A stretch of DNA of 64,000 nt from Candidatus Omnitrophota bacterium (GTDB lineage: Bacteria > Omnitrophota > Gorgyraeia > Tantalellales > Tantalellaceae): NCBI GenBank assembly GCA_028715965.1, contig JAQUQS010000001.1, positions 97,332 to 161,331 on the forward strand. Direction: 5' to 3'. Both the position numbers and the translations under genes were made by a program. The notes under the pieces were generated by a model that was not told the origin of the DNA, ran no database searches, and saw only the letters and a program-made list of their open reading frames with translations. This document shows positions 3,255 through 64,000 of the stretch, piece after piece (positions within the stretch are counted from its first letter, which is position 1; every line of letters begins with the position of its first letter).

Positions 3255-5939
3255 TCACAGCAAAGCGGATATGTTCTCTTTGAGGTCTTCGATCTGGTGC
3301 CGGAATCTTTCCTGCTTGTCTTTCTCCTTATTGACGACATCCTCGGGAGCGTTCTCGAGAAAAGACCTGTTCCCGAGTTTCTTGGTTATACCATTAAGGT
3401 ATTTCTCAAGCTCGGAGACCTTTTTATCTATGCGTTCCTTCTCCCGGTCTATGTCGACAGCCTCACCAAGAGGTACATAGACATTTATGTTCCCGACAAG
3501 GGCCGCCACCGACCTCTCGGGCCTGTCTATCTGCCCGCCGATGGCTGCCACGGTCGACCTTGACAGCCTCTCGATGTAAGGCAGGTTATCCTTGATCGCC
3601 GCGATCTTATCGCCCGAGGGAACGTTCAGGAAGACCTCGATCTGCGTGGTCTGCGGTATGTTCCAGAAAGCACGGATATTCCTTACCCTTGTTATTATAT
3701 CAATGATGACCGCCATAGAAACCTCTGAATCCTCATCATCGAACCCATTGTCCGACACGGGCCATGCCGCGATCATTACGCTCCCCTTGCACGTAGGTAC
3801 CTTATCCCATATCTCTTCGGTTATGAACGGCATAATAGGATGCAGCAATTTAAGCGATACCGCGAGCACATGGACCAATATCTCACATGTGTTCAACCGG
3901 TTCGATGCCAGTTTTGATATTTCCAGGTACCAGTCACAGTATTTATGCCATATAAAGTCATACAATTCCATCGCGGCGTCGTTAAAACGATACGCCTCAA
4001 GGCTTTTCTGCACCTTATCGATCGTACGGTTAAGATTGGACAATATCCACTTGTCCGCGAGCGTCAATTTGTCCCTGTCTATCCTTCCCGAGATGTCCTG
4101 CCCCTCCGTGCTCATAAGGACGTACCTCGACGCGTTCCAGAGCTTGTTTGCGAAATTACGGCCTATTTCGAACTTGTCCCTGGAAAGAAAAACGTCCTGC
4201 CCTTGGGAGGTAATGGATATTATACTGTATCTCAGGGCATCACTGCCGACCTCACGAACGACATCAAGCGGGTCTATCACGTTCCCGAGGGATTTAGACA
4301 TCTTGGTCCCGGTAGCGTCACGTACAGTACCATGTATGTATACGTCCTTGAACGGTACGTCCCCGCGGAACTTGATCCCGGCCATTATCATCCTGGCCAC
4401 CCAGAAGAATATGATCTCCTGCGCAGTGACAAGGGCGTCCGTGGGATAGAACTTCTTGAGGACCTCGGTCTCATCCGGCCAACCCATGGTCGAGAACGGC
4501 CACAGCCACGAACTGAACCAGGTATCCAGCACATCAGGGTCCTGCTCGATATCCACCGAACCACAGTGAGGACATTTATCCGGGACATCACCTACAAAAA
4601 TACCCGGAGTATGTGGTTTATCTACCTCCACGTCCAGTACGTTATCGAACTTCAGACAGCCTTTACAGTACCACACGGGTATCCTGTGCCCCCACCATAT
4701 CTGCCTGGATATGCACCAATCCCTTATATTATCCATCCAGTTAAGATAGACCTTGGTCCATCTCTCGGGATAGAACCTTATCTTGTCATCTTTTACCGCT
4801 TCTATGGCCGGACCGGCAAGTGGCTTCATTTTCACGAACCACTGTTTTGACAAACGTGGTTCGACCACTGTATGACACCTGTAACAGTGCCCGACCGCGT
4901 GCCTGTGGTCCTCGCTCTTGATGAAAAGATGCCTTTGTTTCAGGTCCTCTATGATCGTTTCCCGGCACTCGAACCTGTCCATCCCCTCGTAATCGCCGCC
5001 GAGGCTGTTTATCTTTCCATTGGCATCCATGACATTAATGCGCGGCAATCCATGCTTTGTGCCAAGCTCGAAATCCACGGGATCATGCGCGGGTGTGACC
5101 TTGAGCGCTCCAGTCCCGAAAGTCGGGTCAACGTTCTCGTCAAAGATCATCTTTATCTCGCGCCCCACCAATGGAAGTATCAACATCTTGTCCTTGAGAT
5201 GGGCGCGGGCCTCATCTTTGGGATTTATCGCGACAGCCACGTCCCCGAGCATGGTCTCGGGCCTCGTGGTAGCAACCACGACATAATCCTCGTTCTCTTT
5301 TTCCAGCTTTTCATGTCCCTTGACGGGATATTTTATGTAGTACAGTTTCCCTTCCACATCCCTGTGTTCCGCCTCCTCGTCACTGAGCGCGGTCTCGCAC
5401 CGTGGACACCAGTTAATGATATAATCCCCTTTGTACAGAAGACCATCCTCGTAAAGCCTGAGGAATACTTCCTTTACAGCACGTGAAAGACCTTCGTCCA
5501 TAGTGAACCTGGTACGGTCCCAGTCACATGAACATCCCAGGCGTTTCAACTGGCGTATAATAGTGGAGCCATACTCCTCTTTCCATGTCCATACGCGCTC
5601 TATGAACGCTTCCCGCCCCAGCTCGTCACGTGTGAGACCTTCTTTAGCCAGCTGTCTTTCCACTACGTTCTGCGTGGCTATTCCGGCATGATCGGTGCCG
5701 GGCATCCACAACGCCTCATGCCCCTGCATGCGCTTCCACCTGACCAGTATATCCTGTATGGTATTATTCAGCGCATGCCCCATATGCAGGATGCCTGTTA
5801 CGTTCGGAGGAGGGATGACTATACTGTATTTTTTTTTGCCACTTTTCTCGTCCGCGTGGAAAGAACCGTTCTCCACCCATCCTTGATAGGTCTTCTCCTC
5901 GGACAATAGCGGATCATATTTAGTGCTTAATTCGCTCAT
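3255..5939 (-). CDS. valS: Valyl-tRNA synthetase.
   Basis: The 894-aa ORF has the class I HIGH-type motif (PPPNVTGILHMGHA), KMSKSLGNVIDP, and a ValS-like C-terminal coiled coil. Its start overlaps the upstream gene's stop (ATGA). Confidence 0.95.
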   Translation of the reverse strand: MSELSTKYDPLLSEEKTYQGWVENGSFHADEKSGKKKYSIVIPPPNVTGILHMGHALNNTIQDILVRWKRMQGHEALWMPGTDHAGIATQNVVERQLAKEGLTRDELGREAFIERVWTWKEEYGSTIIRQLKRLGCSCDWDRTRFTMDEGLSRAVKEVFLRLYEDGLLYKGDYIINWCPRCETALSDEEAEHRDVEGKLYYIKYPVKGHEKLEKENEDYVVVATTRPETMLGDVAVAINPKDEARAHLKDKMLILPLVGREIKMIFDENVDPTFGTGALKVTPAHDPVDFELGTKHGLPRINVMDANGKINSLGGDYEGMDRFECRETIIEDLKQRHLFIKSEDHRHAVGHCYRCHTVVEPRLSKQWFVKMKPLAGPAIEAVKDDKIRFYPERWTKVYLNWMDNIRDWCISRQIWWGHRIPVWYCKGCLKFDNVLDVEVDKPHTPGIFVGDVPDKCPHCGSVDIEQDPDVLDTWFSSWLWPFSTMGWPDETEVLKKFYPTDALVTAQEIIFFWVARMIMAGIKFRGDVPFKDVYIHGTVRDATGTKMSKSLGNVIDPLDVVREVGSDALRYSIISITSQGQDVFLSRDKFEIGRNFANKLWNASRYVLMSTEGQDISGRIDRDKLTLADKWILSNLNRTIDKVQKSLEAYRFNDAAMELYDFIWHKYCDWYLEISKLASNRLNTCEILVHVLAVSLKLLHPIMPFITEEIWDKVPTCKGSVMIAAWPVSDNGFDDEDSEVSMAVIIDIITRVRNIRAFWNIPQTTQIEVFLNVPSGDKIAAIKDNLPYIERLSRSTVAAIGGQIDRPERSVAALVGNINVYVPLGEAVDIDREKERIDKKVSELEKYLNGITKKLGNRSFLENAPEDVVNKEKDKQERFRHQIEDLKENISALL

Positions 5940-7513
5940 CTCTTTTTCTTTTCGTCCTTCATGAATTTATATTCGATCGAGTCCTTGAGCGCGAGCCAGC
6001 TGGCCTCAATGATATTCTCGGATACCCCGACCGTCCACCACGAATCTGTCCTGTCCTGTGACTGTATGAGCACCCTTACAGGCGCGGCCGTGGCCGCTTT
6101 CTCGTCGAGCACCCTTACCCTGAAATCCGAAAGGTGCATTTCCTTCAGGGATGGATAGAATTCCATGAGACATTTCCGTAAGGCCTGGTCCATGGCATGA
6201 ACGGGACCGTCACCAAGGGAAACAGTATGCCTGTACTCATTCCCTATTTTAAGTTTTACAGTAGCTTCGGACACAACCGGTCCGTCCCCCCGCTTTTCGA
6301 CTATGACCCTGAAATCCTCCATGTCCAGGTGTTTTTTGAACGTATCAGAAGCCTTCTGCATCAAAAGGAGCAGGGACGCTTCCGCCAGTTCGAACTGGTA
6401 TCCCGCTTTCTCCATGTCCTGCACACAGTTGAGTATCTCTTTGGCCCGCCTGGAATCCTTATCCATATTTATCCCCATCTCGCCGGCCTTGTCGATTATG
6501 CTGGATTTTCCGGAAAGCTCCGAAATAAGCATTCTCCTCTTATTTCCCACTGTCTCGGGGGGAAGATGCTCATAAGTCCTGGGGTTCTTGAGCATGGCGT
6601 TCACATGCACCCCGGCCTTATGGGCGAACGCGCTCTTGCCCACATACGGCTGGAAATCCTGTTGTTTGACATTGCTGATCTCGGATATATACCTGGATGC
6701 TTCCGTCAATTCCTTGAATCCGAACGCCGTAAGACATGTCATCCCCAGCTTGAACTTAAGAGCGGGCAGGATAGAGACCAGGTTGGCATTCCCGCATCTT
6801 TCGCCATAACCGTTGAACGTACCCTGGACATGATCACATCCCGCCTGTACCGCCGCGACCGAGTTCGCGACAGCCATTTCCCCGTCGTTATGTACATGTA
6901 TACCAAGCGGAGCGTTAATCGTTTCCTTGACCTCTTCCACTATTTCAAATACACGCCCGGTCAATGCCCCACCATTAGTGTCGCAGAGTACCAGCGTCTC
7001 GGCCCCTCCGGCAAGCGCCGCTTCGAGCGTCTCTATCGCGTATTCGGGATTATCTTCATAACCGTCAAAAAAATGTTCGGCATCATATATGACCTTGCGA
7101 CCTTTCTGCCTCAAGTACCTTACCGAATCCTCGATCATACTGAGGTTCTCCTTGAGCGTGGTCCTGAACACGCTTTTCACGTGCAGATCCCAGCTTTTTC
7201 CAAATATCGTAACATACGAGGTCTTGGCCTTGAGGAGACCCTTCATCACCACGTCTTCGGAAGCCTTGACTCCCGCCCTCCGCGTACTGCCGAAAGCGAC
7301 AAGTTCGGCCTTTTTAAGTTTAAGGCCTTTGGCGGCTTCGGCGAAGAACTCATCATCCTTCGGGTTCGACCCCGGCCAGCCACCCTCTATAAAATCCACA
7401 CCGATCTCATCCAGTTTCTGGGCAATACGCATTTTGTCCTTTACGCTGAAAGAGATGCCCTCCGACTGGGACCCGTCCCTGAGGGTTGTATCGTAAATGA
7501 ACACTTTTTTCAT
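5936..7513 (-). CDS. cimA: Citramalate synthase / 2-isopropylmalate synthase family protein, CimA-like long form with a C-terminal LeuA-dimer domain.
   Basis: The 525-aa ORF has the N-terminus MKKVFIYDTTLRDGSQSEGISFSVKDKMRIAQKLDEIGVDFIEGGWPGSNPKD, typical of the LeuA-related citramalate synthase clade, and an HMGL-like TIM barrel. Assignment to CimA versus LeuA is by resemblance only. Confidence 0.75.
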   Translation of the reverse strand: MKKVFIYDTTLRDGSQSEGISFSVKDKMRIAQKLDEIGVDFIEGGWPGSNPKDDEFFAEAAKGLKLKKAELVAFGSTRRAGVKASEDVVMKGLLKAKTSYVTIFGKSWDLHVKSVFRTTLKENLSMIEDSVRYLRQKGRKVIYDAEHFFDGYEDNPEYAIETLEAALAGGAETLVLCDTNGGALTGRVFEIVEEVKETINAPLGIHVHNDGEMAVANSVAAVQAGCDHVQGTFNGYGERCGNANLVSILPALKFKLGMTCLTAFGFKELTEASRYISEISNVKQQDFQPYVGKSAFAHKAGVHVNAMLKNPRTYEHLPPETVGNKRRMLISELSGKSSIIDKAGEMGINMDKDSRRAKEILNCVQDMEKAGYQFELAEASLLLLMQKASDTFKKHLDMEDFRVIVEKRGDGPVVSEATVKLKIGNEYRHTVSLGDGPVHAMDQALRKCLMEFYPSLKEMHLSDFRVRVLDEKAATAAPVRVLIQSQDRTDSWWTVGVSENIIEASWLALKDSIEYKFMKDEKKKR

Positions 7514-7544: not shown

Positions 7545-8795
7545 CTATTTTTTCCTTTTGGACGACCGCTTCTTCTCTCCAAGCCCGAAAGCCTTATGTA
7601 TCACACGGACCGCCCTGTCAGCATCTTGTTTTTCCACTACACACGATATCTTTATCTCGCTCGTGGAGATCATGCCGATGTTTATCTTCTCGGTAGCCAG
7701 GGCCCTGAACATCCTGGCGGCAACACCGGAATGGCTTCGCATTCCTATGCCGACCACCGAGACCTTAGCGATGTTCTTATCGAATTTCACGCCCTTAGCG
7801 CCTATGTGCTTCACTATGCTCTTTATGACATTCTGGGTCCTGGTAAGGTCCTTTTCCTCGACAGTAAAGGAAATGTCGGTGGACCTGGTCCTGGAAATGT
7901 TCTGTACTATCATATCCACGTTCACATCCGCCTTCGCGAGTTCCTCAAATAGCTTGCTGGCCTCACCTGGCTTATCAGGCACATCGCAAACGGTTACTTT
8001 GGCCTCGTTCTTGTTCGAGGTCACGCCCCTGACCAAAACATCTTCCATATCCTTGACCTCCCTGGTTACCAATGTCCCTTCTTCCGGGGACATGCTTGAT
8101 CTTATCTGCATGGGAACGTTGTATTTGCCGGCCACTTCCATGCTCCGAGCCTGCATTACCTGAGCCCCGAGAGAAGCCATTTCCAGCATTTCCTCATAAG
8201 TTATCGTGCTCAATTTACGCGCATCCGGCACGACCCTGGGATCCGCGGTATACACGCCTTTCACGTCGGTATATATCTCGCACAGGTCCGCGGAAAGGAC
8301 TTTTGCCAGCGCTACCGCCGTCATATCGCTGCCACCGCGTCCGAGAGTGGTTATCTCGTGGTCCGGATTTATACCTTGGAAGCCGGCCACTATAACAACC
8401 TTGCCCTTGGCCAGTTCCTTTTTTATACGCTTAGTGCCGACATCCAGTATCTTGGCCTTGGTATGTGAGGAGTCTGTCACAATGCCGACCTGGGCCCCGG
8501 TGAAAGAGATCGCTTCCACTTCCCTTTCATGCAGGGCCATAGCTAGAAGCGCTACAGAGACCTGTTCCCCCGTAGAAAGCAGCATGTCCATCTCCCGGTC
8601 CGACGGGTTATCCGTTATCTGGGACGCGAGCTCCACAAGTTCGTCGGTAGTGTCCCCCAAAGCCGACACCACTACGACCACATCGTTCCCTTTTTGTTTT
8701 GTAAGCGCTACTCTACGCGCCACCCCTTTTATCCTGTCGGGATTGGCCACGCTGGAGCCACCGAATTTCTGTACTATGACTTTTCTCCTGCCCAT
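7545..8795 (-). CDS. lysC: Aspartate kinase.
   Basis: The 416-aa ORF begins KVIVQKFGGSSV and has the amino-acid kinase fold followed by two ACT domains. Confidence 0.9.
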   Translation of the reverse strand: MGRRKVIVQKFGGSSVANPDRIKGVARRVALTKQKGNDVVVVVSALGDTTDELVELASQITDNPSDREMDMLLSTGEQVSVALLAMALHEREVEAISFTGAQVGIVTDSSHTKAKILDVGTKRIKKELAKGKVVIVAGFQGINPDHEITTLGRGGSDMTAVALAKVLSADLCEIYTDVKGVYTADPRVVPDARKLSTITYEEMLEMASLGAQVMQARSMEVAGKYNVPMQIRSSMSPEEGTLVTREVKDMEDVLVRGVTSNKNEAKVTVCDVPDKPGEASKLFEELAKADVNVDMIVQNISRTRSTDISFTVEEKDLTRTQNVIKSIVKHIGAKGVKFDKNIAKVSVVGIGMRSHSGVAARMFRALATEKINIGMISTSEIKISCVVEKQDADRAVRVIHKAFGLGEKKRSSKRKK

Positions 8796-8829: not shown

Positions 8830-10029
8830 TCATTTCGATATCAATAACTTCATCAGTTCATGCCCGTGTTTCAACTCCATGCTGCCGGCTTTGGCGGCTT
8901 TTTCCGAGAACACCGTAACACCATCCGGCTCCACTCCTTTACCGGCTATAGCGAACGGTACCGGATCGGAAGTATGGGTCCTTTTCTTGACGGGAGTAGG
9001 ATGGTCCGGGGAGATAAGCACCCTGAAGTCCTTACCACTGTTCTCCATGGCCTTCAAGACCCGCGAAGTGATCTTGCTGTCAAAATTCTCTATGGCTTTT
9101 ATCTTCTCCAGGATATCGCCATTATGCCCGGCTTCATCCGGGGCTTCTACATGTATGAAGACCATATCCATCTCGTCAAGCGCCTCGAGCGCCGCTTCAG
9201 CCTTTCCGCTGTAATCCGTATCGTAATAACCCGTGGCACCGGGCACATCTATGACCCGCAGCCCAAGCACTTTGCCCATTCCCTTGAGAAGATCGACCGC
9301 CGATATTATGGCCCCTGAAAGACCGTAAGCGCTCGAGAACAATGGCATGTCGGGTTTTTTCCCCTGACCCCATACCCATATCATGTCAGCCGGGTTCTGG
9401 CCAAGGTCGATACGAACCTTGTTTATATCATGTCCCTTGAGGACCTCACGCCCCCTGACCATGATATCCACCAGTTCCTGTTCTTTCGGGTAATATTTGT
9501 CTATCGGCTGGTCCAGTATGTCATGGGGCGCGAAACATTCCGTCTTGGCCAGTCTTTCGGCTTCGGTCCGGGACGAACACTTGATAACAAGCAGGTTCCT
9601 GTAGCTTGTCCCGGTATAGAACCTGTAGCGGCTGCTTCCAAGACATCTGTCCAGCTCCTTGACAAGCATATCGGTCTCTTTCGTAGAAATATGCCCGGCC
9701 GAATAATCGGCCATTATACCGTCGGAGATAGATACCATGTTGAACCTGAACGCCACGTCGTTCGGCCCCAGGTCCACACCCAGATTAGCCGCTTCCAATG
9801 GCCCTCTCCCGCAATAATATTTCCGGGGATCATATCCCAATATGGAAAGATTAGCCACATCGCTCGCCGGCGTCATACCTTTTGGGACATTGCTTGATAT
9901 CCCAACGATACCTTTTTTCGCTATCAGGTTCATGCCCGGCGCGTTGGCCACTTCCATACATGTACGGTCATTGAGCTCTTCCAGCGGTTCTCCCGCCATA
10001 CCGTCAGGAACGAGGATAATATACTTCAT
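8830..10029 (-). CDS. Cofactor-independent phosphoglycerate mutase-family protein of the archaeal ApgM type. In this thr-gene context it matches the proposed non-orthologous homoserine kinase.
   Basis: The ORF track gives 8830..10077. The likely start is the internal MKYIILVPDGMAGEP at 10029, which removes the overlap with thrC. It has the metalloenzyme/alkaline-phosphatase-like fold of iPGM family proteins. It sits between thrC and lysC, and no thrB is present in the cluster. Confidence 0.8.
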   Translation of the reverse strand: MKYIILVPDGMAGEPLEELNDRTCMEVANAPGMNLIAKKGIVGISSNVPKGMTPASDVANLSILGYDPRKYYCGRGPLEAANLGVDLGPNDVAFRFNMVSISDGIMADYSAGHISTKETDMLVKELDRCLGSSRYRFYTGTSYRNLLVIKCSSRTEAERLAKTECFAPHDILDQPIDKYYPKEQELVDIMVRGREVLKGHDINKVRIDLGQNPADMIWVWGQGKKPDMPLFSSAYGLSGAIISAVDLLKGMGKVLGLRVIDVPGATGYYDTDYSGKAEAALEALDEMDMVFIHVEAPDEAGHNGDILEKIKAIENFDSKITSRVLKAMENSGKDFRVLISPDHPTPVKKRTHTSDPVPFAIAGKGVEPDGVTVFSEKAAKAGSMELKHGHELMKLLISK

Positions 10030-10033
10030 AAGA

Positions 10034-11095
10034 TTATAGACCAGCCTCCTTGACCACCTCTTCAAGCTTTGGCTCAACTACCGGAGGATGTTCCAGGCAT
10101 TTTATAGCGCGATCCGGATCCTTGAGCCCATGGCCCGTGAGCACACAGATTATGTCCTTTGTCTCCCCATCCGCAAGTTCCGGGAAATATCCCTCTCCCG
10201 CCTTTTTCATTACACCCGCCACGCTTGCCGCCGACGCGGGTTCACAGAACACCCCGACTTTCCCGGCCAGGAACTTATAGGCGTCAAGGATCTCATCGTC
10301 CGTCACCTTGTCTATGAGCCCACCGGACTCATCCCTTGCCTCCTCGGCGGACTTCCAACTGGCGGGATTCCCGATCTTTATCGCCGTCGCTATGGTCTGC
10401 GGGTCTTTTACGGGCCTTCCTTCCACTATGGGAGCGGCCCCCGCAGCCTGGAAACCAAGCATTACCGGGCATGACCTGGTAATACCCGAGGCCTTATATT
10501 CTTTATATCCTTTCCAATACGCCGTGATGTTCCCGGCATTCCCGACCGGAAGCGCGTGATAATCCGGGGCATGGCCCAGCTTATCGCATATCTCGAAAGA
10601 AGAGGTCTTCTGCCCTTCGATACGATACGGATTTATCGAGTTCACCAAAGTTATAGGATACTTTTCCGTAAGCTCTCTCACTATTTCCAGCGCGTCGTCG
10701 AAATTACCCTTGATTGCTATGACCTTCGCGCCGTGTATAAGGGCCTGGGCCAGCTTACCGAGCGCTATAGCGCCTTCGGGAATGACCACTATGCATTTTA
10801 TGCCCGCACGTGCCGAGTATGCCGCAGCCGAAGCCGAGGTATTCCCCGTAGACGCGCACGCGACGGCCTTTGATCCCGCCTCCAGGGCTTTTGAGACCGC
10901 CATGGTCATTCCCCTGTCCTTGAAACTCCCGGTAGGGTTCAGGCCTTCATACTTAAGCCACACCCTGTATCCTTTGCCAACGACCGCGGCTACAGGATCG
11001 GCTTTTATCAGCGGCGTATCCCCTTCCTCAAGAGAGATCACCGGGGTTTTCCCCGATACCGGAAGATATTTTCTGTATTTGTCTATAAGTCCCAT
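10034..11095 (-). CDS. thrC: Threonine synthase.
   Basis: The 353-aa ORF has the PLP fold-type II motifs ([11 protein letters not shown]) and typical short-form ThrC length. Confidence 0.9.
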
Positions 11096-11115: not shown

Positions 11116-12414
11116 CTACTGTTCCATCCTTATGGCGACCGTACTGTCGCTTACGTGTTCCAGCTTATCCGCTTCCATTATGGCTTTTCTCATATCGCCT
11201 TCAAGCGCTTTATGCGTAAGTATTATCACGGGCACCGGCCCACCTTCATTCCTTTCGTCCTGAGATACACTGGCGATACTTATGTTATTCTTAGCGAGAA
11301 CGGAAGATATACCGGCCAGCACACCGGGCTTATCAATAACGGAGAACCTCAGGTAATAAGATATCTTTATATCTTCCATCTTCTTTATCCTGCCACCGGG
11401 AGCGAAAACCGGGTCGCATGCCGGCTGGTCCGGACTCCCGGAGCTGTTCATGTTCCTTGCTATCTCGATGATATCGCCCATAACGGAACTCGCTGTCGGC
11501 CTGCTTCCGGCCCCTTTGCCAAAAAGCAGCGATTCCCCGACGAGGTCACCCTTGATGAATATGGCATTGTCCGCGCCGCGTACACCCGAAAGAAGATGAG
11601 ATACCGGTATCAACGTCGGATGGACCCGAAGCTCTATGCCGTCGGCGGTATTCTTGGCGATAGCCAGGAGCTTAACGCTATATCCCCATCTTGCGGCGTT
11701 CCTGATGTCCTGGCTGGATACAAGCTCTATCCCTTCGGTGTAAACGTCTTTTGCCGTAACATCCGCGCCAAATCCCAGTACCGACAATATTGCCAGCTTA
11801 TGCGCGCTGTCGGCCCCGCTTATATCCAGGGTCGGATCGCTTTCAGCGAACCCTTTGGCCTGCGCGGTCCCCAGGGCGTCGGCGAAAGAACATCCTTTTT
11901 CCGACATTTCCGTCAATATGAAATTGGTCGTACCGTTGAGTATGCCGTATATGGTCTCTATCCTGTTAGCGACAAAACTGTCACGTAAGGTCCTGATAAC
12001 GGGTATGGCGCCGCCTACACTCGCCTCGAAATTCACGGATACACCTTTCGCGGAAGCCGCCGAAAAGATCTCTTTCCAGTGCTCGGATAAAAGGGCCTTG
12101 TTAGCCGTAACTACATGCTTGCCCTTACGTATCGCCCCAAGTATTATGCTCTTTGCCGGCTCAATACCGCCAATAAGTTCAACGATCACGTCTATGTCGT
12201 TATCGTTCAGCAGATCATCATAGGACCCGGTAATGATATCACATTTTCCCCTGGAAATGTCTTTCAACGCGGCCGCCGCACTATCGCATACACCTTTGAC
12301 CTTTAAAGACACCCCGGCCCTTTTCTCGATAAGAGGTCCATTGCTTATCACAGCATCATATACGCCCTTGCCTATGGTACCAACGCCTATTATGCCTATA
12401 TTGACCGTTTTCAT
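11116..12414 (-). CDS. hom: Homoserine dehydrogenase.
   Basis: The 432-aa ORF has an N-terminal NAD-binding region ([12 protein letters not shown]), a homoserine dehydrogenase catalytic domain and a C-terminal ACT domain. Confidence 0.9.
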
Positions 12415-12450: not shown

Positions 12451-12529
12451 TGGTCGGGACGGCCGGATTTGAACCGGCGACCCCTAGTCCCCCAGACTAG
12501 TGCGCTAAACCAGACTGCGCTACGTCCCG
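12451..12529 (-). tRNA. tRNA-Pro, anticodon GGG.
   Basis: The reverse complement is CGGGACGTAGCGCAGTCTGGTTTAGCGCACTAGTCTGGGGGACTAGGGGTCGCCGGTTCAAATCCGGCCGTCCCGACCA. It folds by hand into a cloverleaf: a 7-bp acceptor stem, a GCGC D-stem, an anticodon stem CTAGT/ACTAG with loop CTGGGGG, a T-arm GCCGG-TTCAAAT-CCGGC, and an encoded CCA. Confidence 0.8.
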
Positions 12530-13796: not shown

Positions 13797-14162
13797 TCAT
13801 GCTTTCTCCTTGATCTGGTCTATAGTGATCTTCAGTTCATTAAGGTACATGATCCGGTACGCGGTATGCCGCGAAACCACGAATATTTCCCCCAATATCT
13901 TGCATATTATCTTGTTCTCCCCGGTACGCGTATCCACATGCCGGAGGATATGACAGTCTCTTTTAGTGCCCTCATCCGTTTTTGCGCGTATCCACTCTTT
14001 TATCACCTGTTTGTTCTCCGATGTAAACCTTTCCTTTATAAAGTACTTACACATCCACTTCTTGGAAACTTTATTACGTGAACGTGCAGATATCTCCTCT
14101 ATAGATATCTCACTTTTTCTGGGATTATCGCCTAATTTGCTTTTGTAAAATAATTCCTTCAT
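13797..14162 (-). CDS. Hypothetical small basic protein with a C-terminal helix-turn-helix, resolvase/transposase-type HTH-like, in an AT-rich islet.
   Basis: The 121-aa ORF is Lys-rich. Its C-terminus KIICKILGEIFVVSRHTAYRIMYLNE resembles HTH_7 / resolvase-transposase DNA-binding helices. AAGGG sits 5 nt upstream of the ATG. Local GC is about 38% versus about 50% nearby. The gene is flanked by its own hairpin terminators. Confidence 0.5.
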   Translation of the reverse strand: MKELFYKSKLGDNPRKSEISIEEISARSRNKVSKKWMCKYFIKERFTSENKQVIKEWIRAKTDEGTKRDCHILRHVDTRTGENKIICKILGEIFVVSRHTAYRIMYLNELKITIDQIKEKA

Positions 14163-23134: not shown

Positions 23135-23971
23135 TCACCCCTTTGCCGCGTGCACAGCGTCCGCCATATCCCGGACGAACTTCCTCACCGTTCGCAGCAT
23201 CCTTTCCCTGTTCCCAAGGTTCTTTTCGATGATCTTGATCACCGCGCTACCCACTATGACTCCGTCAGATACCGACGCTATATCGCGCGCCTGGGCCGGA
23301 GTGGATATCCCGAACCCCACGCACACAGGCACATTGGATATCTTCCTGAGTTTTTCTACCCTGCTCTTAAGCCCGTGGGCCAATCCTGTCCTTTCGCCCG
23401 TAACACCGGTGAGAGAGACATAATACAGGAACCCTCCGGACATGTTCGATATCTCGCGGGTTCTCTTCATGGAGGTTGTGGGGGCGGCCAACATTATCAG
23501 GCAAACATTGTTCCTCCTGCACGCTTTTTCAAGTAGCCCGGCTTCCTCCATGGGAAGGTCCGGGACTATTATCCCGTCAGCGCCGGAAGAAGCAGCGGCA
23601 CGCGCGAACCTCTCAACACCGTACGTAAAGATTATGTTGTAATAGGTCATGAACGCTATCGGCACATCAATGCTCTTCCTTGTCCTTTTCACGAGATCAA
23701 GTACCTTTTTTACCGTACATCCTGCCGTAAGGGATCTATGGATAGCACGTTGTATCGTAGGTCCGTCCGCCATGGGATCCGAGAACGGTATACCTAACTC
23801 GACCATATCCGCCCCGGACCCGGCCAGTCCCCTGACAAGCTTCTCCGTGGTCCCCAGGTCCGGGTCCCCGGCGGTAATATAAGTAATCAGGGCTTTACGC
23901 CCGGCCAGTCTTTCGAACATGGATACTATCCTGTTCGAACTTAGTGATCTTTTTACGTTTTTTCCAGTCAT
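23135..23971 (-). CDS. trpA: Tryptophan synthase alpha chain.
   Basis: Motifs [11 protein letters not shown] and [22 protein letters not shown] are present. The start was chosen at the ATG that forms an ATGA overlap with the trpB stop. The ORF track extends to 24022, and an alternative start at MFERLA (23920) is possible. Confidence 0.9.
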
Positions 23972-25158
23972 AAGTATTCCTTGATTATGTTCATATCCTT
24001 GTCCCCTCGACCGGAAAGACACAATACTATGATGTCTTTCTTCTTCGCCCTCTTTACCAGTTCGGGAAGATAAGCTACAGCGTGCGCCGACTCAAGTGCC
24101 GGCATTATGCCTTCACAGACGGCAAGGGTCTTCACTCCGCAAAGCGCCTCTTTATCCGTTATTGACACATATTCCGCCCGACCGGAATCCTTATAGAAAG
24201 AATGTTCCGGGCCAACGCCGGGATAATCAAGTCCGGCCGACACCGAATGCGCCAGTTGTATCTGGCCATCACTGTCTTCCAGGAGATAACTTTTGCTCCC
24301 ATGCAGCACTCCAGGGCGGCCTTTTTTGAGCGCTGCCGCGTGCTTACCGGTCGACAGTCCCGCCCCCGCCGCTTCGACCCCTATGAACTTCACGGCCTTA
24401 TCGCCGTAGAACTCATGGAAAAGCCCCATTGAGTTACTGCCTCCGCCCACACAGGCCACCAGGTACGAAGGCAGCCTGCCTTCGATCTTAATGATCTGTT
24501 TTTTTGTCTCTCTGCCTATTATGGACTGGAAATCCCGTACCATCATAGGATAAGGATGCGGGCCAGCCACTGATCCGATCACATAATGCGTATCCCCTAC
24601 GTTGGTCACCCAATCCCTTATAGCCTCGTTCATCGCGTCCTTAAGGGTACATGAGCCGCTATCGACAGGGATGACCTCGGCTCCCAGGAGATTCATCCTG
24701 GACACGTTGAGGCTCTGCCTTTCTATGTCTTCCGTGCCCATATACACCGCGCATTTCATGCCGAAAAGCGCGGCAACGGTAGCCGTAGCCACACCATGTT
24801 GTCCGGCTCCGGTCTCGGCTATCAGCCTCCTCTTGCCCATCTCTTTCGCCAGGATTGCCTGCCCCACGGTATTATTTATCTTATGCGCGCCGGTGTGCAG
24901 CAAGTCCTCCCTCTTGAGATATATCCTGGCACCGCCCAGAGTACGCGTAAGGCTTTCGGCATAATACAACGGCGTAGGCCTCCCCACATATTCCCTGAGA
25001 TAATACCTTAGTTCTTTCCGGAAAGGCGCGGACATGCATATTTTCCTGTAAGCTCTTTCCAGTTCTTCCACGGCCGGCATAAGTGTTTCGGGTACGAACC
25101 TCCCCCCGAACTCGCCGAAATATCCCTTTTTATCCGGTAGGTCCTGTTTTTTTCGCAT
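23968..25158 (-). CDS. trpB: Tryptophan synthase beta chain (TrpB1 type).
   Basis: The 396-aa ORF has [15 protein letters not shown], the PLP-Lys motif [13 protein letters not shown], and GGGSN. Confidence 0.95.
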
Positions 25159-25813
25159 TTTTTATGAACTCCCTCAATAATACTTTATCTTTTATCGCGG
25201 TCAGTTTTTCCACCCCGCTGGAAACATCAACTCCGAACGGTGACAGCTCAAGTACCGCACGCGCAACGTTATCGGGATCAAGTCCTCCCGCCAGGAAGAA
25301 AGGCTTATTTATATCCCGTATCCTTTTTCTGAGCACATCCCAGTTAAAGACCTTACCGGTGCCTCCATGGAAATCCTTGTCATAGGTGTCGAACACAAAA
25401 TAATCCACGCAAAGGTAGTCCCGACAACTTTTACCCCCGGGATGAATTATCCCATCGGTACCGACCTTAAGCACCTTGAGCAGTTTTACCCCGCGCGCGC
25501 CTTTCCCCAAAAGAACGTTCTCCAGCCTTTCACAGTACTCCGGGCTCTCATCGCCATGCAATTGTACATGGTCAATGCCACAGCGCACTACCATGTCGCT
25601 AACCTCGTCCACCGGGCTATCCATGAAGAGGCCGGTAAATCCGCTGGTGTACCCATTCTTCCGCGCGGCCTCAAGTATCTCTATTGCCCGGCTCTCAGGA
25701 ACGGCCCGTGGTGTCCCCTTTATGAATATGAGCCCAATAAGGTCCGCACCTAGCCTGAACGAGTCCAGCGCGTCCTCCGCTCGTGTTATACCACATATCT
25801 TGACTTTCGTCAT
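25130..25813 (-). CDS. trpF: Phosphoribosylanthranilate isomerase.
   Basis: The 227-aa ORF begins [15 protein letters not shown], has ..VQLHGDE.., and the TIM barrel of the PRAI family. Confidence 0.9.
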
Positions 25814-25832
25814 GTGATCGGGCTCTTTTCTT

Positions 25833-27191
25833 CTATCCGGCTACGCACGGGATATCTTTCTGCGCGAGCTGTATTTTCTCATCCGGCAGCTCGAAATCTT
25901 CCAGTTGCCCGGAAAGATACGCGTTATAGGACGCCAGGTCAAAGTGTCCATGTCCGCTGAACATCATCACGATACACTCTTCCCTTCCTTCCTCCTTACA
26001 CCTGATAGCCTCGTCGATAGCCGATCTTATAGCGTGTGAGGTCTCAGGAGCGGGAATGATCCCTTCAGCCCTGGCGAACATGACCGCCGCGTCGAAAACA
26101 CTGTTCTGGTGGTAGGCCTTGGCCTCCACTACCTTCTGGTCGACAAGAAGGCTTACAAGAGGCGCCATGCCATGGTACCTGAGCCCTCCGGCGTGTATCC
26201 CCGGCGGGACGAAACCGTGTCCCAGCGTATGCATCATGAGAAGCGGCGTCATTTTCGCCGTATCCCCGAAATCATATCTATACGGCGCCCTTGTCAAGGT
26301 GGGGCATGCCGTGGGTTCGGTCGCTATTATCTTTATATCCGCGCCGTCAAGCTTATCCTTGACGAACGGGAACGCGAACCCCGCGAAGTTGCTTCCGCCC
26401 CCGCAACACCCGATCAATACGTCAGGGCTTTCACCCGCGATAGCCAGCTGTTTCTTCACTTCCTGCCCCACTATCGTCTGATGCAACAGCACGTGGTTAA
26501 GCACACTGCCAAGTGAATATTTAACGTCATCTTCTTTTACCGCGGCCTCTATGGCCTCAGAGATGGCCATGCCCAGACTGCCAGTCGTATCAGGGAACTC
26601 GGCGAGTATCTTCCTGCCGGTTTCGGTCCTTTCGCTGGGGGACGGATACACTTTGCCGTTCCATACATGCATAAGGAACTTCCTGTAAGGTTTTTGGTCA
26701 TAACTGACCCGGACCATGTATACCTCACATTCGAGCCCGAACAGGTTACACGCGAACGAAAGAGCGCTTCCCCATTGCCCCGCGCCCGTTTCCGTGGTTA
26801 TTTTCCTCACGCCCGCCTGCTTGTTGTAATATGCCTGCGCGACCGCCGTGTTCGGCTTATGGCTGCCGGGAGGAGAAACACTCTCGTCCTTATAATATAT
26901 CCTTGCCGGCGTACCCAGCATCTTCTCCAGTCTCCTTGCCCTTCTAAGCGGCGTAGGCCTCCACAACCGGTAAATATCCATGAGCTCATCCGGTATCTCG
27001 ATGTATTTCTCCATCGATATTTCCTGGTCGATGATGTTCCTGGGAAATATCGGCAACAGGTCATCAGGGCTTATCGGCTTACCCGTCGCCGGGTTGATCG
27101 GCGGCTTTAACGGCTGTGGCAGGTCCGGTTGTATGTTATACCACCTAGTGGGAAGCTCTTTTTCACTGAGAAGTATCTTATAATCATCCAT
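25833..27191 (-). CDS. TrpB2-type tryptophan synthase beta-like protein, the long indole-salvaging paralog.
   Basis: The 452-aa ORF has a TrpB2-specific N-terminal extension (..[16 protein letters not shown]..). The PLP-Lys is in [10 protein letters not shown]. The GGGSN motif and its length are longer than TrpB1. Confidence 0.85.
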
Positions 27192-27213
27192 TAGTGTACC
27201 TCCATAATTTTGA

Positions 27214-27999
27214 TCATTCTCTCATCAACTCCCTGACCTTATCCCCTATATTATCGGACGCCATGAACGTCTCGCCGATAAGTACGGCATTCACACCCAG
27301 GCTTTTGAGGAACATAACGTCCTCATAGGTCCGTATGCCGCTTTCCGATACTATTATCTTGTTTTCCGGGACATGTCTCATGAGCCTCTGTGTTACCGAT
27401 ATATCGACCTCAAAATCCTTGAGGTCCCTGTTATTTATGCCGATGATCAACGCGTGGCTGGCCACGGCTTTCTCGATATCCTCCTCATTGTGGGCCTCCA
27501 CCAGGACATCCATGCCCATCTCTTTCGCGAGGCTCAGATACCTCGCCAGTTCCTCCTGGGTAAGTATCTGGGCGATCAGGAGTATCGCGTCCGCCCCGGC
27601 CACGGCCGATTCATATATCTGGTATTCGTCTATGATGAACTCTTTCCTGAGAACAGGGATAGTGACGTTCCTCTTTACCTCGTTTATGTACTCCAATTTC
27701 CCGTCAAAGAACCTTTCGTCGGTAAGCACGCTTATGGCGCTAGCCCCTGACGCCTGGTAAGTAAGCGCTATCTTGAGCGGGTTGAAATCCGCCCTTATGA
27801 CCCCTTTTGAAGGCGACCTTTTCTTTATCTCCGCGATCAGGTTGATATGCCCTTTCCGCGATATGTTCTTCTTGAACTGGCTGCTTATATACAGGTTCTC
27901 GGCCTCTTTCCTGATCTGGCTGAGGGATATTTTCTTCTGGGCCCTGTCTATCTCGCGTTTCTTTTCCTCTATTATTTTCGAAAGTATCATTTTCTCCAC
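27214..27999 (-). CDS. trpC: Indole-3-glycerol phosphate synthase.
   Basis: The 261-aa ORF has IIEEKKREI.., [21 protein letters not shown], and the IGPS TIM barrel. Confidence 0.9.
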
Positions 28000-28012
28000 T
28001 CCTGGGATAATA

Positions 28013-29050
28013 TCATTTTGTTCCTGCGGAGGTCATCTTTGCCATCACCGCAAGTTTTTCCAATGCGCGCCCGGAATCTATGCATGTCCCGGCCATTTTG
28101 ACGCCTTCCTTGAGGTCGTGCACTTTACCCGCGGCCATAAGCGCCAGGCTCGCGTTCATAAGGACAATATCCCTGTGTGGGCCCTTTTTCCCGGACAATA
28201 CGGCCTTGACCATACGGGCGTTAGCCCTGGCCGACCCGCCTTTTATGGCCTCTATTGGGGCCTTACGCAACCCGAACGCTCCCGGGTTCAGGTAATAGGA
28301 CCTTATCCTGCCGCCTTTGAGCTCGCTCACCAGGGACAATCCCGATATGGACAGTTCGTCCAGATGGCCACTACCATGGACCACATACGCCCTTTTGCTC
28401 CCCAGGCGCTTCAACACGCCTGCCATTAGCTCGGTAAGGTTCTTGGTGCATACACCCATCACCTGGCAATCCGCCTGTGCGGGATTGCATAACGGCCCGA
28501 GCAGGTTGAATATGGTACGTATGCCTATCTCCTTGCGCGGAGCGACCGCGTATTTCATCGCGCCATGGTAAAGCGGGGCGAACATAAAACATATCCCGAT
28601 CTCCTTCAGGCATTTTTCCGAGACCTTGAGAGGCACATCTATACCGACTCCCAGCTTTTCCAACACGTCCGCGCTTCCACACCTGCCGGACGCCGCCCTG
28701 TTCCCGTGTTTAGCTACCTTTACGCCGCATCCCGCCACCACGAACGCCGCGGTCGTGGAAATATTGAAAGTGTTCTTGCCCGTCCCACCCGTACCACAAG
28801 TGTCGATGACCGGCTCATTGCCGCTTCCCGCGTTGATCTTCAGGGACCTCTGGCGCATCACACGCGCCGCACCCGTTATCTCGTCAACGGTCTCGCCTTT
28901 GATCCTGAGAGCCGTTATAAAAGACGCTATCTGTGCCGGAGTGGCTTTACCTGTCATGATGTGATCGAATACGGCGAAAGTCTCCTTCTCGTCCAGATCG
29001 GTGCGAGTCACCACTTTTTCTATCATCTTACTCATATCCATGCGGTTCAT
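28013..29050 (-). CDS. trpD: Anthranilate phosphoribosyltransferase.
   Basis: The 345-aa ORF has [28 protein letters not shown], the glycosyl transferase family 3 motif. Confidence 0.9.
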
Positions 29051-29610
29051 GCCTCCAGAAAATTACCCAACAGTTTTTTTCCTTCGAACGTCAATATGGA
29101 CTCGGGGTGGAATTGCACTCCCCAGACAGCCATTTCCTTATGGGCCAGGCCCATTATCTCCTTGTCCTCGGTCCATGCGGTCACCTCCAGCGGGTCCTTC
29201 ACTGTGGAAGGTTCCGCCAGGAGGGAATGATATCTGGTCGCCTCGAACGGGGAAGGAATACCCTTGAATATACCTTTACCGTCATGGTATATGAGGCTGG
29301 TTTTCCCATGCATTATGTTGTCGCCCCTCTCAACCTTAGCGCCATAGACCTCGGCTATGCACTGGTGCCCCAGGCAGACCCCCAGTATGGGCACTTTACC
29401 CTGCATCATCCTGATCACATCTTCGGAGATCCCGGCATCGGCAGGGCGTCCGGGTCCGGGTGATATAATGATCTTCTCCGGGGCCATATCGGCCACCTCT
29501 TCCAACGTTATCTGGTCGTTGCGATACACCACCAGATCAGCCCCCATTTCCCCGAGATACTGCACGAGGTTATATGTGAACGAATCATAATTATCGATGA
29601 CCAATATCAT
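29047..29610 (-). CDS. trpG: Anthranilate synthase component II (glutamine amidotransferase).
   Basis: The 187-aa ORF begins [19 protein letters not shown], with GVCLGHQ (catalytic Cys) and the class I GATase His/Glu. Confidence 0.9.
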
Positions 29611-31091
29611 TCCAGCCCCTCTTCCGCGAAATCTATTGCCTTCATCATGGCCATGGCCTTGTTCACCGTTTCCTTGAACTCGTTGACAGGGTCGGAATCC
29701 AGCACAATACCGGCGCCAGCCTGGATATTGGCCTCATCCCCATCCATTATGATGGTCCTTATGGTGATACACATATCGATATTGCCCGAGAAACTTATGT
29801 AACCAATGCATCCCGCGTAAAGACCACGTCTCAGGTTCTCCAGCTCGTCTATTAACTCCATGGCCCTTACCTTGGGCGCGCCGCTCACGGTACCGGCCGG
29901 AAAGGTCGCGCGGATAAGATCGTAAACGTCCTTATCCTTGCCGAGCTTTCCGACGATGTCACTTACAATATGCATCACGTGGGAATACCTCTCGATATGC
30001 ATGAGCTGCAGCGTCTTGACCGAGGAATACTCACATACCCTGCCTATGTCATTACGCCCGAGATCCACCAGCATCACGTGTTCGGCCCTTTCCTTGGGAT
30101 CGGCCAACAGCTCTTTTTCCAGCTCAATATCCTTTTCTTCGCTCTCCCCCCGCTTACGTGTACCCGCTATGGGCCTTATTTCCACGTTCCCGTCCTCACA
30201 GCGCACCAGTATCTCCGGGGATGAACCCACGATACGCTGGTCCCCGAACTTAAGGTAGTACATGTATGGTGACGGGTTTATGGACCTTAACGCCCTGTAG
30301 ACCGAGAAGGGATCCGCGCCGGTCCTGCGCCTGAACCTCTGTGATAGCACTATCTGTATTATCTCACCGGCACGTATATATTCTTTGGCTTTCTCCACGG
30401 CATCGCCGAACGCGCTTTCCGTGAAATTCGACTCGACCTTGTTCGCGGTCATGCCCGTCGAGACCTTCGGTTCGGTGACCGGCAGCCTCATCTTTTCCAC
30501 TATCGCCCCGATCTTCTCTACAGCCGCGTCATAGGCGCCCGAAGCGTCCCCGTCAAGTATCGCGTTGGACACTATCTTGATCTTATGATCGACATGATCG
30601 AAAATAAGAATGGTATCCGTAAGCACGAGCTGCATGTCCGGCATGTCCAGCTCTTCCGGGTTGTTGTCGGGGACCTCCTCCACAAAACGTACCATATCGT
30701 ACCCGATATACCCGACGAGCCCCCCGCAGAACCGGGGAAGCCCCTTCACGGGCACAAAACGGAAATCCTTCATTATCGACCTGACCTCGTCTATTGGGTC
30801 GGTAGAGGTCTTGTATGATTCCACTTCCGGGCCGCGCCTCACCTTCATGTCCGCGCCTTTGCTCTCGATGACCAGGGACGGGTCACTGCCCAGAAATGAA
30901 TATCGCCCGACATGCTTGCCGCCTTCTACCGATTCAAGAAGGTACGAGAACGGGCCTTTGTCTATCTTGAGGAAAGCCGAGAGCGGCGTGTCAAAATCCG
31001 CCAGCATCTCCCTGTAGACCGGAATAACGTTCCCCTTTCCCGCCAGTTTGAGAAATTCCTTTTTACTCGGATAATACTCTGCTCTACTCAT
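29607..31091 (-). CDS. trpE: Anthranilate synthase component I.
   Basis: The 494-aa ORF has the chorismate-binding domain (..GAGIV..) and an N-terminal regulatory domain. ATGA-type overlaps link it to trpG. Confidence 0.95.
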
Positions 31092-45199: not shown

Positions 45200-46405
45200 T
45201 TATCCTAATACCTTCTTGAACTCCTGAGTAAGCGCCGGTAATACCTTGAAAAGGTCTCCCACTATACCATAAGTAGCTACGCCGAATATAGGCGCCTCGG
45301 GATCCTTATTAATAGCTACGATCACGTCCGATGACTTCATCCCGATAAGGTGCTGTATCTGGCCGCTTATACCACAAGCGATATATAGTTTCGGGCATAC
45401 GGTCTTACCGGTCTGCCCGACCTGGTGCGAGTACGGGATCCATCCGGCATCGACCGCCGACCTCGATGCCCCCACCGCGGCGTTAAGCCCCAGCGCCAGT
45501 TCCCTGATGATCTCGAAATTCTCTTTTGAGCCCACACCTCGCCCCCCGGAGACAATTATATCCGCTTCCGCTATATTTATGGTCGATTCTATCTCCTCGA
45601 CGATATCGATAAGCTTTGTCCTTGAAGCGTATGTATCCTCATCAAAGGATTCGCGTATTATTTCGCCCTTCCTGGAACTATCAGCTTCGGCCTCTTTCAT
45701 GACCTTATGTCTTACGGTGGACATCTGCGGCCTGGAATTGGGCGTGATTATGGTAGCCATGATATTACCACCAAAAGCCGGCCTTGTCTGGAGAAGCAGT
45801 TTTTCGTCCGGATCTATATCGAGCCCCGTACAATCCGCGGTAAGCCCGGCCCTTATGTCCACAGCTACGCGTGATATCAGGCTCCTGCCTATGGTGGTAG
45901 CCCCGCAAAGCACTATTTCCGGTTTATATTGCGACACCAGCTTGATAAGGACCTTGGTATAAGGGTCGTCCTGATATACCCTCAATTTGGGGGAATCCAC
46001 GAGATATACTTTATCGGCGCCTTTTTCTATGAGTTCCCTGCACACATCTTCCACTCCGTCGCCCAAAAGCACCGCGCAAAGCTTAACCCCGAGCTTATCC
46101 GCGAGTTCCCTGCCTTTTCCCAGTAGCTCGAACGCCACGGACTGCACTTTTCCCTTTTTCTGCTCGGCGAAGACCCATACATCCTTATACATGGAAAAAT
46201 CTTTTTTAGCGGCGGTGTCTTTTTTCTTTATATCGATGGCATCGAACTTACACACCTCTACGCAGGCCCCGCATAACGTACACTTGGTAAGGTCAATGAC
46301 CGCTTTCTTGTTCTCTACGGTCATGGCACCGAAAGGGCATTCCTTTACGCACAGCTTACATCCAATGCATTTATCGTTGATCTTTATCGGCAGTTCTCCG
46401 CTCAT
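45200..46405 (-). CDS. etfA: Electron transfer flavoprotein alpha subunit with an N-terminal 2x[4Fe-4S] ferredoxin domain.
   Basis: The 401-aa ORF has two CxxCxxCxxxCP motifs (CIGCKLCVKECP, CTLCGACVEVC) and then an EtfA FAD-binding domain (..ACGISGQIQHL..). Confidence 0.9.
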   Translation of the reverse strand: MSGELPIKINDKCIGCKLCVKECPFGAMTVENKKAVIDLTKCTLCGACVEVCKFDAIDIKKKDTAAKKDFSMYKDVWVFAEQKKGKVQSVAFELLGKGRELADKLGVKLCAVLLGDGVEDVCRELIEKGADKVYLVDSPKLRVYQDDPYTKVLIKLVSQYKPEIVLCGATTIGRSLISRVAVDIRAGLTADCTGLDIDPDEKLLLQTRPAFGGNIMATIITPNSRPQMSTVRHKVMKEAEADSSRKGEIIRESFDEDTYASRTKLIDIVEEIESTINIAEADIIVSGGRGVGSKENFEIIRELALGLNAAVGASRSAVDAGWIPYSHQVGQTGKTVCPKLYIACGISGQIQHLIGMKSSDVIVAINKDPEAPIFGVATYGIVGDLFKVLPALTQEFKKVLG

Positions 46406-46424
46406 ATGCGCTCCATCTCCCGTT

Positions 46425-47216: not shown

Positions 47217-47235
47217 TGTTGCTCTTCCTTCCGGC

Positions 47236-63606: not shown

Positions 63607-64000
63607 ATGAACAAGGTGGTATTGTTACGTCACGGTGAAAGCGTATGGAACAAGGAAGGCCTGTTCACAGGATGGACAGACGTGGACATCTCTGAGAACG
63701 GAATGCATGAAGCGCATGAAGCGGCACGGCTGTTAAAAGAGAACGGGTTCTTTTTTGATGCCGCTTTCACTTCCCTGCTGAAAAGGGCCATACGCACTTT
63801 GTGGATAGTCCTTGAGGACATGGAACTCATGTGGATCCCGGTATATCGTTCATGGCGTCTCAATGAAAGACATTATGGCGCGCTCCAGGGCTTGAACAAG
63901 AAAGAGACCGCGGCCAAGTTCGGCGAGGACCAGGTCCATGCATGGCGACGAAGTTTCGACGTGCCTCCTCCACTCCTGGAGATCTCTGACGAAAGGTTCC
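63607..64000 (+). CDS. gpmA: 2,3-bisphosphoglycerate-dependent phosphoglycerate mutase, 5' portion. The gene continues beyond the window.
   Basis: It begins [32 protein letters not shown], the catalytic His of the RHGE motif, and continues with ..[12 protein letters not shown]... There is no stop within the window. Confidence 0.85.

Follow-up and report, generated by a model that had tools for sequence, protein, structure and literature searches.

The phosphorylation of homoserine ahead of threonine synthase (ThrC) is usually carried out by ThrB, an ATP-dependent enzyme of the GHMP type (EC 2.7.1.39) whose gene often lies beside thrC. ThrH of Pseudomonas aeruginosa, a phosphoserine:homoserine phosphotransferase with a HAD fold and an aspartyl-phosphate intermediate, forms O-phosphohomoserine independently of ATP and can replace ThrB (cited in 10.1101/2024.10.14.618325). 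A further family has the fold of the archaeal-type cofactor-independent phosphoglycerate mutases (iPGMs; ApgM) and carries three names: TIGR02535, ThrB2 and HomK. The gene considered here, homK, belongs to it. It lies on the minus strand at positions 8830..10029 of a 64-kb stretch of contig JAQUQS010000001.1 (the window), whose source is an uncultured Omnitrophota bacterium. Its sequence and context point to a HomK that would feed O-phospho-L-homoserine to ThrC in place of a GHMP-type ThrB, a reading to which we give a probability of about 0.86.

On the strength of gene context, the curators of TIGRFAMs suggested that TIGR02535 is the missing homoserine kinase, and Bacteroides thetaiotaomicron BT2402 mutants require threonine (both PMC7311316). 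Ashniev et al. (PMC9026213), who named the family ThrB2, report thrB2 from 300 gut genomes, and 278 of these have no thrB. In the GapMind 2026 preprint (10.1101/2024.10.14.618325), an E. coli thrB::kan strain was rescued by BT2402 and by the divergent DET_RS08350, proteins from two phyla, and the family was renamed HomK. The same work names S56 the catalytic serine and proposes E299, a lysine in phosphoglycerate mutases, as the specificity residue. It reasons from co-occurrence with glycerate kinase that the phosphate does not come from phosphoglycerate and speculates that phosphoserine supplies it; published guesses comprise phosphoserine and phosphoenolpyruvate (PEP). Since genetics and complementation now back a family that is no longer only "proposed", the present finding is known rather than new. 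The locus is an ordinary, well-conserved instance of this genetically validated family in a new phylum.

Family assignment

The gene model is as follows.

8830..10029, minus strand: homK/thrB2, a 399-aa archaeal-type iPGM-fold protein, predicted homoserine phosphotransferase forming O-phosphohomoserine

The open reading frame (ORF) begins with ATG, and the same 399-aa product is called independently on two further metagenome contigs, which confirms the coordinates given by a first-pass annotation of the window. The N-terminal residues M1-K2-Y3 are invariant across 59 homologues and fix the start at the ATG at 10029. On the same ground, an upstream TTG at 10077, offered by a mechanical ORF list, was rejected. 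The motif AGGAGG stands 15 nt upstream of the ATG, within the end of thrC.

The first-pass annotation described the product as an archaeal-type iPGM homolog, and the domain matches agree: Pfam PhosphMutase lies inside Metalloenzyme, and archaeal-type iPGM models of NCBIfam match at E = 1e-163. The scores against individual NCBIfam profiles are more discriminating.

NF003242, "cofactor-independent phosphoglycerate mutase": 544.3 bits, cut-off 426
TIGR02535, "proposed homoserine kinase": 531.6 bits, cut-off 446.3, spanning residues 1-397 of 399
TIGR00306, "apgM" (subfamily level): 504.9 bits, cut-off 320
NF003104, the ApgM equivalog: 322.9 bits, cut-off 489, failed
NF038358, the PhpG model: 235.8 bits, cut-off 545, failed

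The structurally solved ApgMs, PH0037 (2zkt) and that of T. acidophilum (3kd8), pass NF003104 with 599 and 535 bits and fail both TIGR02535 (327 and 275) and NF003242 (328 and 281). NF003242 and TIGR02535 scores lie no more than 35 bits apart in every one of eleven other relatives, which come from Methanosarcina, Altiarchaeales, Bathyarchaeota, Asgard, Nitrososphaerales, a Clostridia metagenome-assembled genome (MAG), Ca. Omnitrophus magneticus and Pacearchaeota and include three metagenome proteins. The two profiles are thus two labels for a single clade that stands apart from bona fide ApgM. NCBI calls an identical protein, on a 285,994-bp contig of a Candidatus Omnitrophica MAG, a "cofactor-independent phosphoglycerate mutase", as it does most Omnitrophota relatives, probably because NF003242 usually scores slightly higher. 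For the homK protein this label is probably wrong.

A neighbor-joining tree of 72 sequences leads to the same division. The ApgM group splits off with the query excluded in 100 of 100 bootstraps, and the homK protein groups with Omnitrophota sequences in 96 of 100. Branching within bona fide ApgM would have counted against the reading of the first-pass annotation; by the tree and by hidden Markov model (HMM) score alike, the protein lies outside that group. The proposed homoserine kinase subfamily to which that annotation alluded is TIGR02535, and the protein scores above its cut-off.

Fold and active site

The AlphaFold2 model of the protein has a predicted local distance difference test (pLDDT) score of 91.4 and a predicted template-modeling (pTM) score of 0.90. 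Its best Foldseek match is 2zkt_B (PH0037), at E = 1.4e-36 with template-modeling (TM) scores of 0.81/0.84. Because HomK and ApgM have the two-domain iPGM fold in common, the fold does not discriminate between them. With the ApgMs (PH0037, 2zkt; T. acidophilum, 3kd8/3idd) the homK protein shares the alkaline-phosphatase-superfamily architecture, a catalytic serine, identical two-metal ligands and presumably a phosphoserine intermediate. It differs from them in having only about 28% identity in the Foldseek alignment, in failing NF003104 and in falling into a separate clade. It is also predicted to transfer phosphate between molecules, whereas ApgM moves it within one. The codons of the residues that matter most are these.

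9862..9864, minus strand: Ser56, the predicted phospho-accepting catalytic serine, aligned with the catalytic Ser of solved ApgMs
9145..9147, minus strand: Glu295, the specificity position, where HVEAPDEAGH aligns with niKatDvagh and hfKptDaagh
9691..9705, minus strand: Y109-S110-A111-G112-H113, where ApgM has R-R-A-G-R
9370..9372, minus strand: Trp220, W in 99% of HomK-like sequences and R in 100% of ApgMs

The catalytic apparatus is complete. Ser56 carries the same residue number as S56 of BT2402, D9 is likewise shared, and S56, D9, D298, H302, D342, H343 and H352 are invariant in the 59 Omnitrophota homologues. The catalytic serine and metal ligands are conserved in the wider family as well.

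The substrate pocket is where the two clades part. It was compared between 231 HomK-like sequences and 41 ApgMs, a taxonomically narrow sample of 40 Thermoplasmata proteins and PH0037. Column 295, the sole E/K column, holds Glu in 92% of the former and Lys in all 41 of the latter. Positions 109, 110 and 113 are Arg in 100% of the ApgMs and never in the HomK-like set, which has Tyr/His/Phe, Ser/Thr, and His and others, respectively. Position 299 is Glu in HomK-like sequences and Val/Ile/Ala in ApgM, and position 143 is Tyr in the former and His in the latter. At 295, 299, 109, 110, 113, 220 and 143, the homK protein bears the HomK-like residue. Relative to ApgM, then, the pocket loses five cationic residues (K295, R109, R110, R113 and R220) and gains two glutamates (E295 and E299), changes that would fit a switch from a doubly anionic phosphoglycerate to an amino-acid substrate. 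The roles of the four ApgM arginines are assigned here from conservation rather than from a ligand-bound structure. E295 would lie near S56, since the metal ligand D298 follows it by three residues.

A homologue numbered like BT2402 (P0163; D9, S56, D346, H347) carries E299 in column 295. It was chosen for this numbering and is not a Bacteroides protein, its relatives being archaeal (Methanosarcina, Bathyarchaeota and Asgard). Appendix 3 of the preprint (10.1101/2024.10.14.618325) gives D274, H278 and H325 as the second-metal ligands of BT2402. If D346/H347 and E299 are right, these positions misfit the family alignment, which instead yields D298, H302 and H352 in the window protein and approximately D302, H306 and H356 in BT2402; the published numbers may be a numbering slip or a peculiarity of BT2402.

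Operon context and lack of thrB in the window

The genes around homK, all on the same strand, are listed below.

12451..12529, minus strand: tRNA-Pro(GGG), ARAGORN; Rfam RF00005, 63.8 bits; upstream edge of the run
11116..12414, minus strand: hom, homoserine dehydrogenase, 432 aa; NF004976, 499.3 bits; Pfam NAD_binding_3, Homoserine_dh and a C-terminal ACT domain; makes homoserine
10034..11095, minus strand: thrC, threonine synthase, 353 aa; TIGR00260, 334.2 bits, cut-off 167.1; consumes O-phosphohomoserine
7545..8795, minus strand: lysC, monofunctional aspartate kinase, 416 aa; NF005155, 599.1 bits; two ACT domains
5936..7513, minus strand: cimA, citramalate synthase; TIGR00977, 736.9 bits, cut-off 450; threonine-independent route to isoleucine
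3255..5939, minus strand: valS, from its ORF and conserved synteny; last gene in the conserved run

The six genes hom-thrC-homK-lysC-cimA-valS are packed tightly between 12414 and 3255. Intergenic gaps from hom to cimA are 20, 4, 34 and 31 nt, and the cimA stop overlaps valS by 4 nt. The thrC stop codon falls 4 nt before the homK ATG and hom lies upstream of thrC, a gene context in keeping with HomK/ThrB2. NCBIfam and Pfam matches of the neighbors thus bear out the order hom-thrC-[iPGM-like]-lysC read by the first-pass annotation.

That annotation had also found no GHMP-type homoserine kinase in the cluster, and wider searches agree with it. Pfam and NCBIfam scans of about 50 window ORFs found neither a GHMP kinase nor a ThrH-like HAD domain, and a six-frame regular-expression search for GHMP motif II, which covered the window and about 150 kb of related loci, found none. 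In the homK protein itself, the GHMP_kinases_N domain was not found, and the only Pfam matches are PhosphMutase and Metalloenzyme. Both a complete trp operon and a hisD-B-H-A-F operon lie in the window, so the organism looks prototrophic, which suggests a host that is self-sufficient in amino acids.

Conservation of the locus

Eight Omnitrophota MAG loci were found in the genome collection, with HomK identities of 68-77% (the top value being a partial match). As far as their contigs extend, all keep the order der-plsY-gpsA-hom-thrC-homK-lysC-cimA-valS; it is seen in loci L003-L006, L008 and L010, and L007 and L009 are truncated. The order persists even in MAGs with HomK identities of no more than 68-73%. 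The homologue from Ca. Omnitrophus magneticus (P0114) is already labelled "putative homoserine kinase".

Outside Omnitrophota, the link of homK to threonine genes is looser. In M. acetivorans, the homK-family gene is divergent from aspartate kinase, and in one Asgard and one Nitrososphaerales genome its neighbors are uninformative. In three Bathyarchaeia-type genomes, it adjoins the gene for serine hydroxymethyltransferase (SHMT; L014 5001-6212, L016 5001-6212, L018 5001-6209). In L016 and L018, ATP-dependent PEP carboxykinase (PEPCK) lies on the side opposite SHMT, and a gene for an ACT-HAD, SerB-like phosphoserine phosphatase is close by in loci of this type. Neither hom nor thrC occurs within 5 kb of the family gene in L014, L016 or L018. 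The proteins from all these groups pass TIGR02535.

Proposed mechanism and phosphate donor

Family membership, residue signature and operon position, together with the conservation of all three, are direct observations at this locus; the chemistry that follows is modeled on homologs. Hom would produce L-homoserine. A two-metal center, formed by D9 and S56 with D342/H343 and by D298/H302 with H352, would activate Ser56, which would take the phosphoryl group from a donor and pass it to the gamma-hydroxyl of homoserine in a ping-pong reaction. ThrC, translated from the same message, would then turn O-phosphohomoserine into threonine. The ping-pong chemistry would follow from homology to ApgM and the alkaline-phosphatase superfamily, and the formation of the product is predicted by analogy from complementation by two other family members, BT2402 and DET_RS08350.

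The word "kinase" is probably the wrong one, as the fold implies a phosphotransferase that works through a phosphoserine by ping-pong. With no nucleotide-binding site in the fold, ATP is an unlikely donor. So is 2- or 3-phosphoglycerate: the replacement of all five ApgM-invariant cationic pocket residues in the HomK clade argues against a phosphoglycerate donor. A further proposal, possible but doubtful, is that HomK is an ATP-independent phosphotransferase with neither substrate a phosphoglycerate and with a phospho-amino acid such as O-phospho-L-serine as donor, in effect ThrH-like chemistry on an iPGM scaffold. In Omnitrophota, Bacteroidota, many Clostridia and methanogens, the serine pathway would then be coupled to threonine synthesis, and the Bathyarchaeal linkage to SerB, SHMT and PEPCK would be a trace of that coupling. 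This linkage could point to the phosphate donor, either PEP or phosphoserine, or could be a mark of mixed function. The donor is a question for the whole HomK family rather than for this locus.

A comparison of the homK protein with the enzymes that it resembles or would replace makes its position clear. Like the HomKs BT2402 and DET_RS08350, it passes the family HMM, has D9 and Ser56 at the BT2402 numbers and Glu at the specificity position, and its gene shares a strand with hom and thrC, with thrB absent (here, within the window) and another phosphoglycerate mutase present. It differs in that its host belongs to Omnitrophota and that its role is predicted from sequence. The gene order in Bacteroides is thrA-thrB2-thrC, in contrast to the monofunctional hom and lysC with cimA-valS seen here. 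With ThrB it would share the step and the product, and its gene occupies a slot beside thrC that thrB often fills; its fold is unrelated, it carries no GHMP or ATP-binding motifs, and its donor is probably a different one. With ThrH it would share ATP-independent formation of O-phosphohomoserine and the capacity to replace ThrB, but the two proteins have no homology.

Weighing the alternatives

The first-pass annotation read homK as a non-orthologous homoserine kinase. This reading is supported by the TIGR02535 match, Glu295, branching outside ApgM, the conserved slot between thrC and lysC and the presence of a separate phosphoglycerate mutase. Several points weigh against it. The absence of thrB holds for the 64-kb window and not for the whole genome. 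An earlier complementation attempt with BT2402 failed (PMC7311316), and the published rescue of thrB::kan is weak, with an optical density (OD600) gain of 0.14 after 47 h (10.1101/2024.10.14.618325). E299 of BT2402 is mapped to E295 by alignment logic that rests on the unique E/K column. NF003242, which is named for phosphoglycerate mutase and from which NCBI probably takes its name for the protein, scores the protein slightly above TIGR02535. Finally, the TIGR02535 clade may lack a single common function, since its Bathyarchaeial members lie beside PEPCK, SHMT and SerB and not beside threonine genes.

The name given by NCBI represents the first alternative, that homK is a genuine ApgM placed by chance in a threonine operon and serving glycolysis or gluconeogenesis. 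The shared fold and metal/serine catalytic set, the passing scores on TIGR00306 (504.9 versus 320) and NF003242, and the Bathyarchaeial relatives adjoining PEPCK and serine-pathway genes are all what it would predict. It is nevertheless very unlikely. A genuine ApgM should pass NF003104, as the solved enzymes do, and retain Lys295 and the four invariant arginines, which are here replaced by E and by Y, S, H and W; it should not be separated from ApgM in every bootstrap or keep its place between thrC and lysC in eight diverged genomes. Other members of its family rescue thrB mutants (10.1101/2024.10.14.618325). Moreover, the window already encodes a phosphoglycerate mutase of the other type.

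63607..64000, plus strand: gpmA, 2,3-bisphosphoglycerate-dependent phosphoglycerate mutase (dPGM); TIGR01258, 212.7 bits, cut-off 81.7; His_Phos_1; RHGES motif

Only the N-terminal 131 aa of gpmA are present before the window ends, and the TIGR01258 match upholds the first-pass identification of a canonical dPGM starting at 63607, an enzyme that serves glycolysis.

A second alternative keeps the amino-acid substrate and changes its identity: homK would phosphorylate another hydroxy-amino acid, such as L-threonine to L-threonine-O-3-phosphate for cobalamin, or move phosphate among intermediates of the serine pathway. A Glu-rich pocket would suit any amino-acid substrate, and the genes of Bathyarchaeal members lie near those for SerB and SHMT. 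Homologues beside cobD or in corrinoid operons, such as Dehre_1608 (CbiU), belong to the same iPGM-like family, have Glu at the specificity position and have been proposed, though only proposed, as threonine kinases. These proteins differ from homK in their cobalamin context and score best on TIGR00306 rather than TIGR02535 (10.1101/2024.10.14.618325), the reverse of the homK protein. No cob genes lie near homK, which neighbors hom, thrC and lysC in eight genomes, and this alternative is likewise improbable.

The least probable of all is that homK encodes an accessory or regulatory factor, required for threonine synthesis but not itself forming O-phosphohomoserine, a possibility left open by the 2020 GapMind paper and consistent with the failed and then weak BT2402 complementation, but at odds with a full catalytic apparatus that is invariant across the family and with the rescue of thrB::kan by two members from different phyla.

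The main value of reading homK as HomK lies in the correction of an annotation. Nearly all Omnitrophota relatives are also named "cofactor-independent phosphoglycerate mutase" by NCBI. With that label on homK, a metabolic reconstruction would count the threonine pathway as incomplete and might mistake the bacteria for auxotrophs; the HomK assignment closes this gap in the pathway. Omnitrophota are uncultured and often ultra-small bacteria.

Transcription signals

Just 36 nt separate the end of tRNA-Pro(GGG) from the start codon of hom; the genes of the threonine operon may share a transcript with the tRNA or be served by a very short promoter region. Upstream of hom, an Rfam search for riboswitches, T-boxes and attenuators returned tRNA-Pro as the sole match. 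Promoter-like sites are no commoner than in shuffled sequence and terminator-like sites slightly commoner; between the operon genes, the same scan found no terminator-like sites.

Fusion proteins and other features of the window

Several HomK homologues are far longer than the homK protein. The cluster representatives P0134, P0136, P0138, P0142, P0167, P0168, P0242 and P0243, each about 1000-1100 aa long, carry a HomK-like domain at the N terminus, followed by a charged linker, one hydrophobic, probably transmembrane, stretch and a beta-rich C-terminal region of about 550 aa. The five that were aligned (P0134, P0136, P0138, P0167 and P0242) retain the catalytic residues and the specificity Glu, and P0138 (MDE6604440.1, from a Clostridia MAG) passes TIGR02535. 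The C-terminal regions are mutually homologous and have no Pfam matches. This arrangement tethers a cytoplasmic amino-acid enzyme to an apparently extracytoplasmic domain. In P0185 (622 aa), an S26 signal-peptidase domain is joined to the C-terminal side of a HomK-like domain, which may be a gene-call merger of neighboring genes. Fusions of long HomK homologues to threonine enzymes were sought, and none was found; the partners were only the transmembrane helix with the beta-rich domain and the one signal peptidase, and are uninformative on the threonine pathway.

Elsewhere in the window, the trp genes at 23135-31091 on the minus strand run trpE-trpG-trpD-trpC, a TrpB2-type gene and trpF-trpB-trpA, giving two TrpB paralogues. 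The TrpB2-type gene at 25833..27191 encodes a "TrpB-like PLP enzyme" (PLP, pyridoxal phosphate; NF009057, 746 bits). Just upstream of gpmA and on the opposite strand, a 2504-aa ORF (55833-63347, minus strand) has GlnD_UR_UTase as its sole Pfam match, at residues 2081-2211 (37.6 bits), with faint matches resembling S-adenosylmethionine (SAM) methyltransferases near residue 1340. Two minus-strand ORFs have no significant Pfam or NCBIfam match: one of 533 aa at 51625-53226, whose NCBIfam score is 20.7 bits against a cut-off of 175, and one of 121 aa at 13797-14162, where G+C is 0.47-0.50 compared with about 0.52 elsewhere. At 45200-48396, again on the minus strand, a row of genes encodes an acyl-CoA dehydrogenase, EtfB and an EtfA whose N terminus carries a 2x[4Fe-4S] ferredoxin domain, an arrangement reminiscent of a Bcd/Etf-type module to which a ferredoxin is fused.

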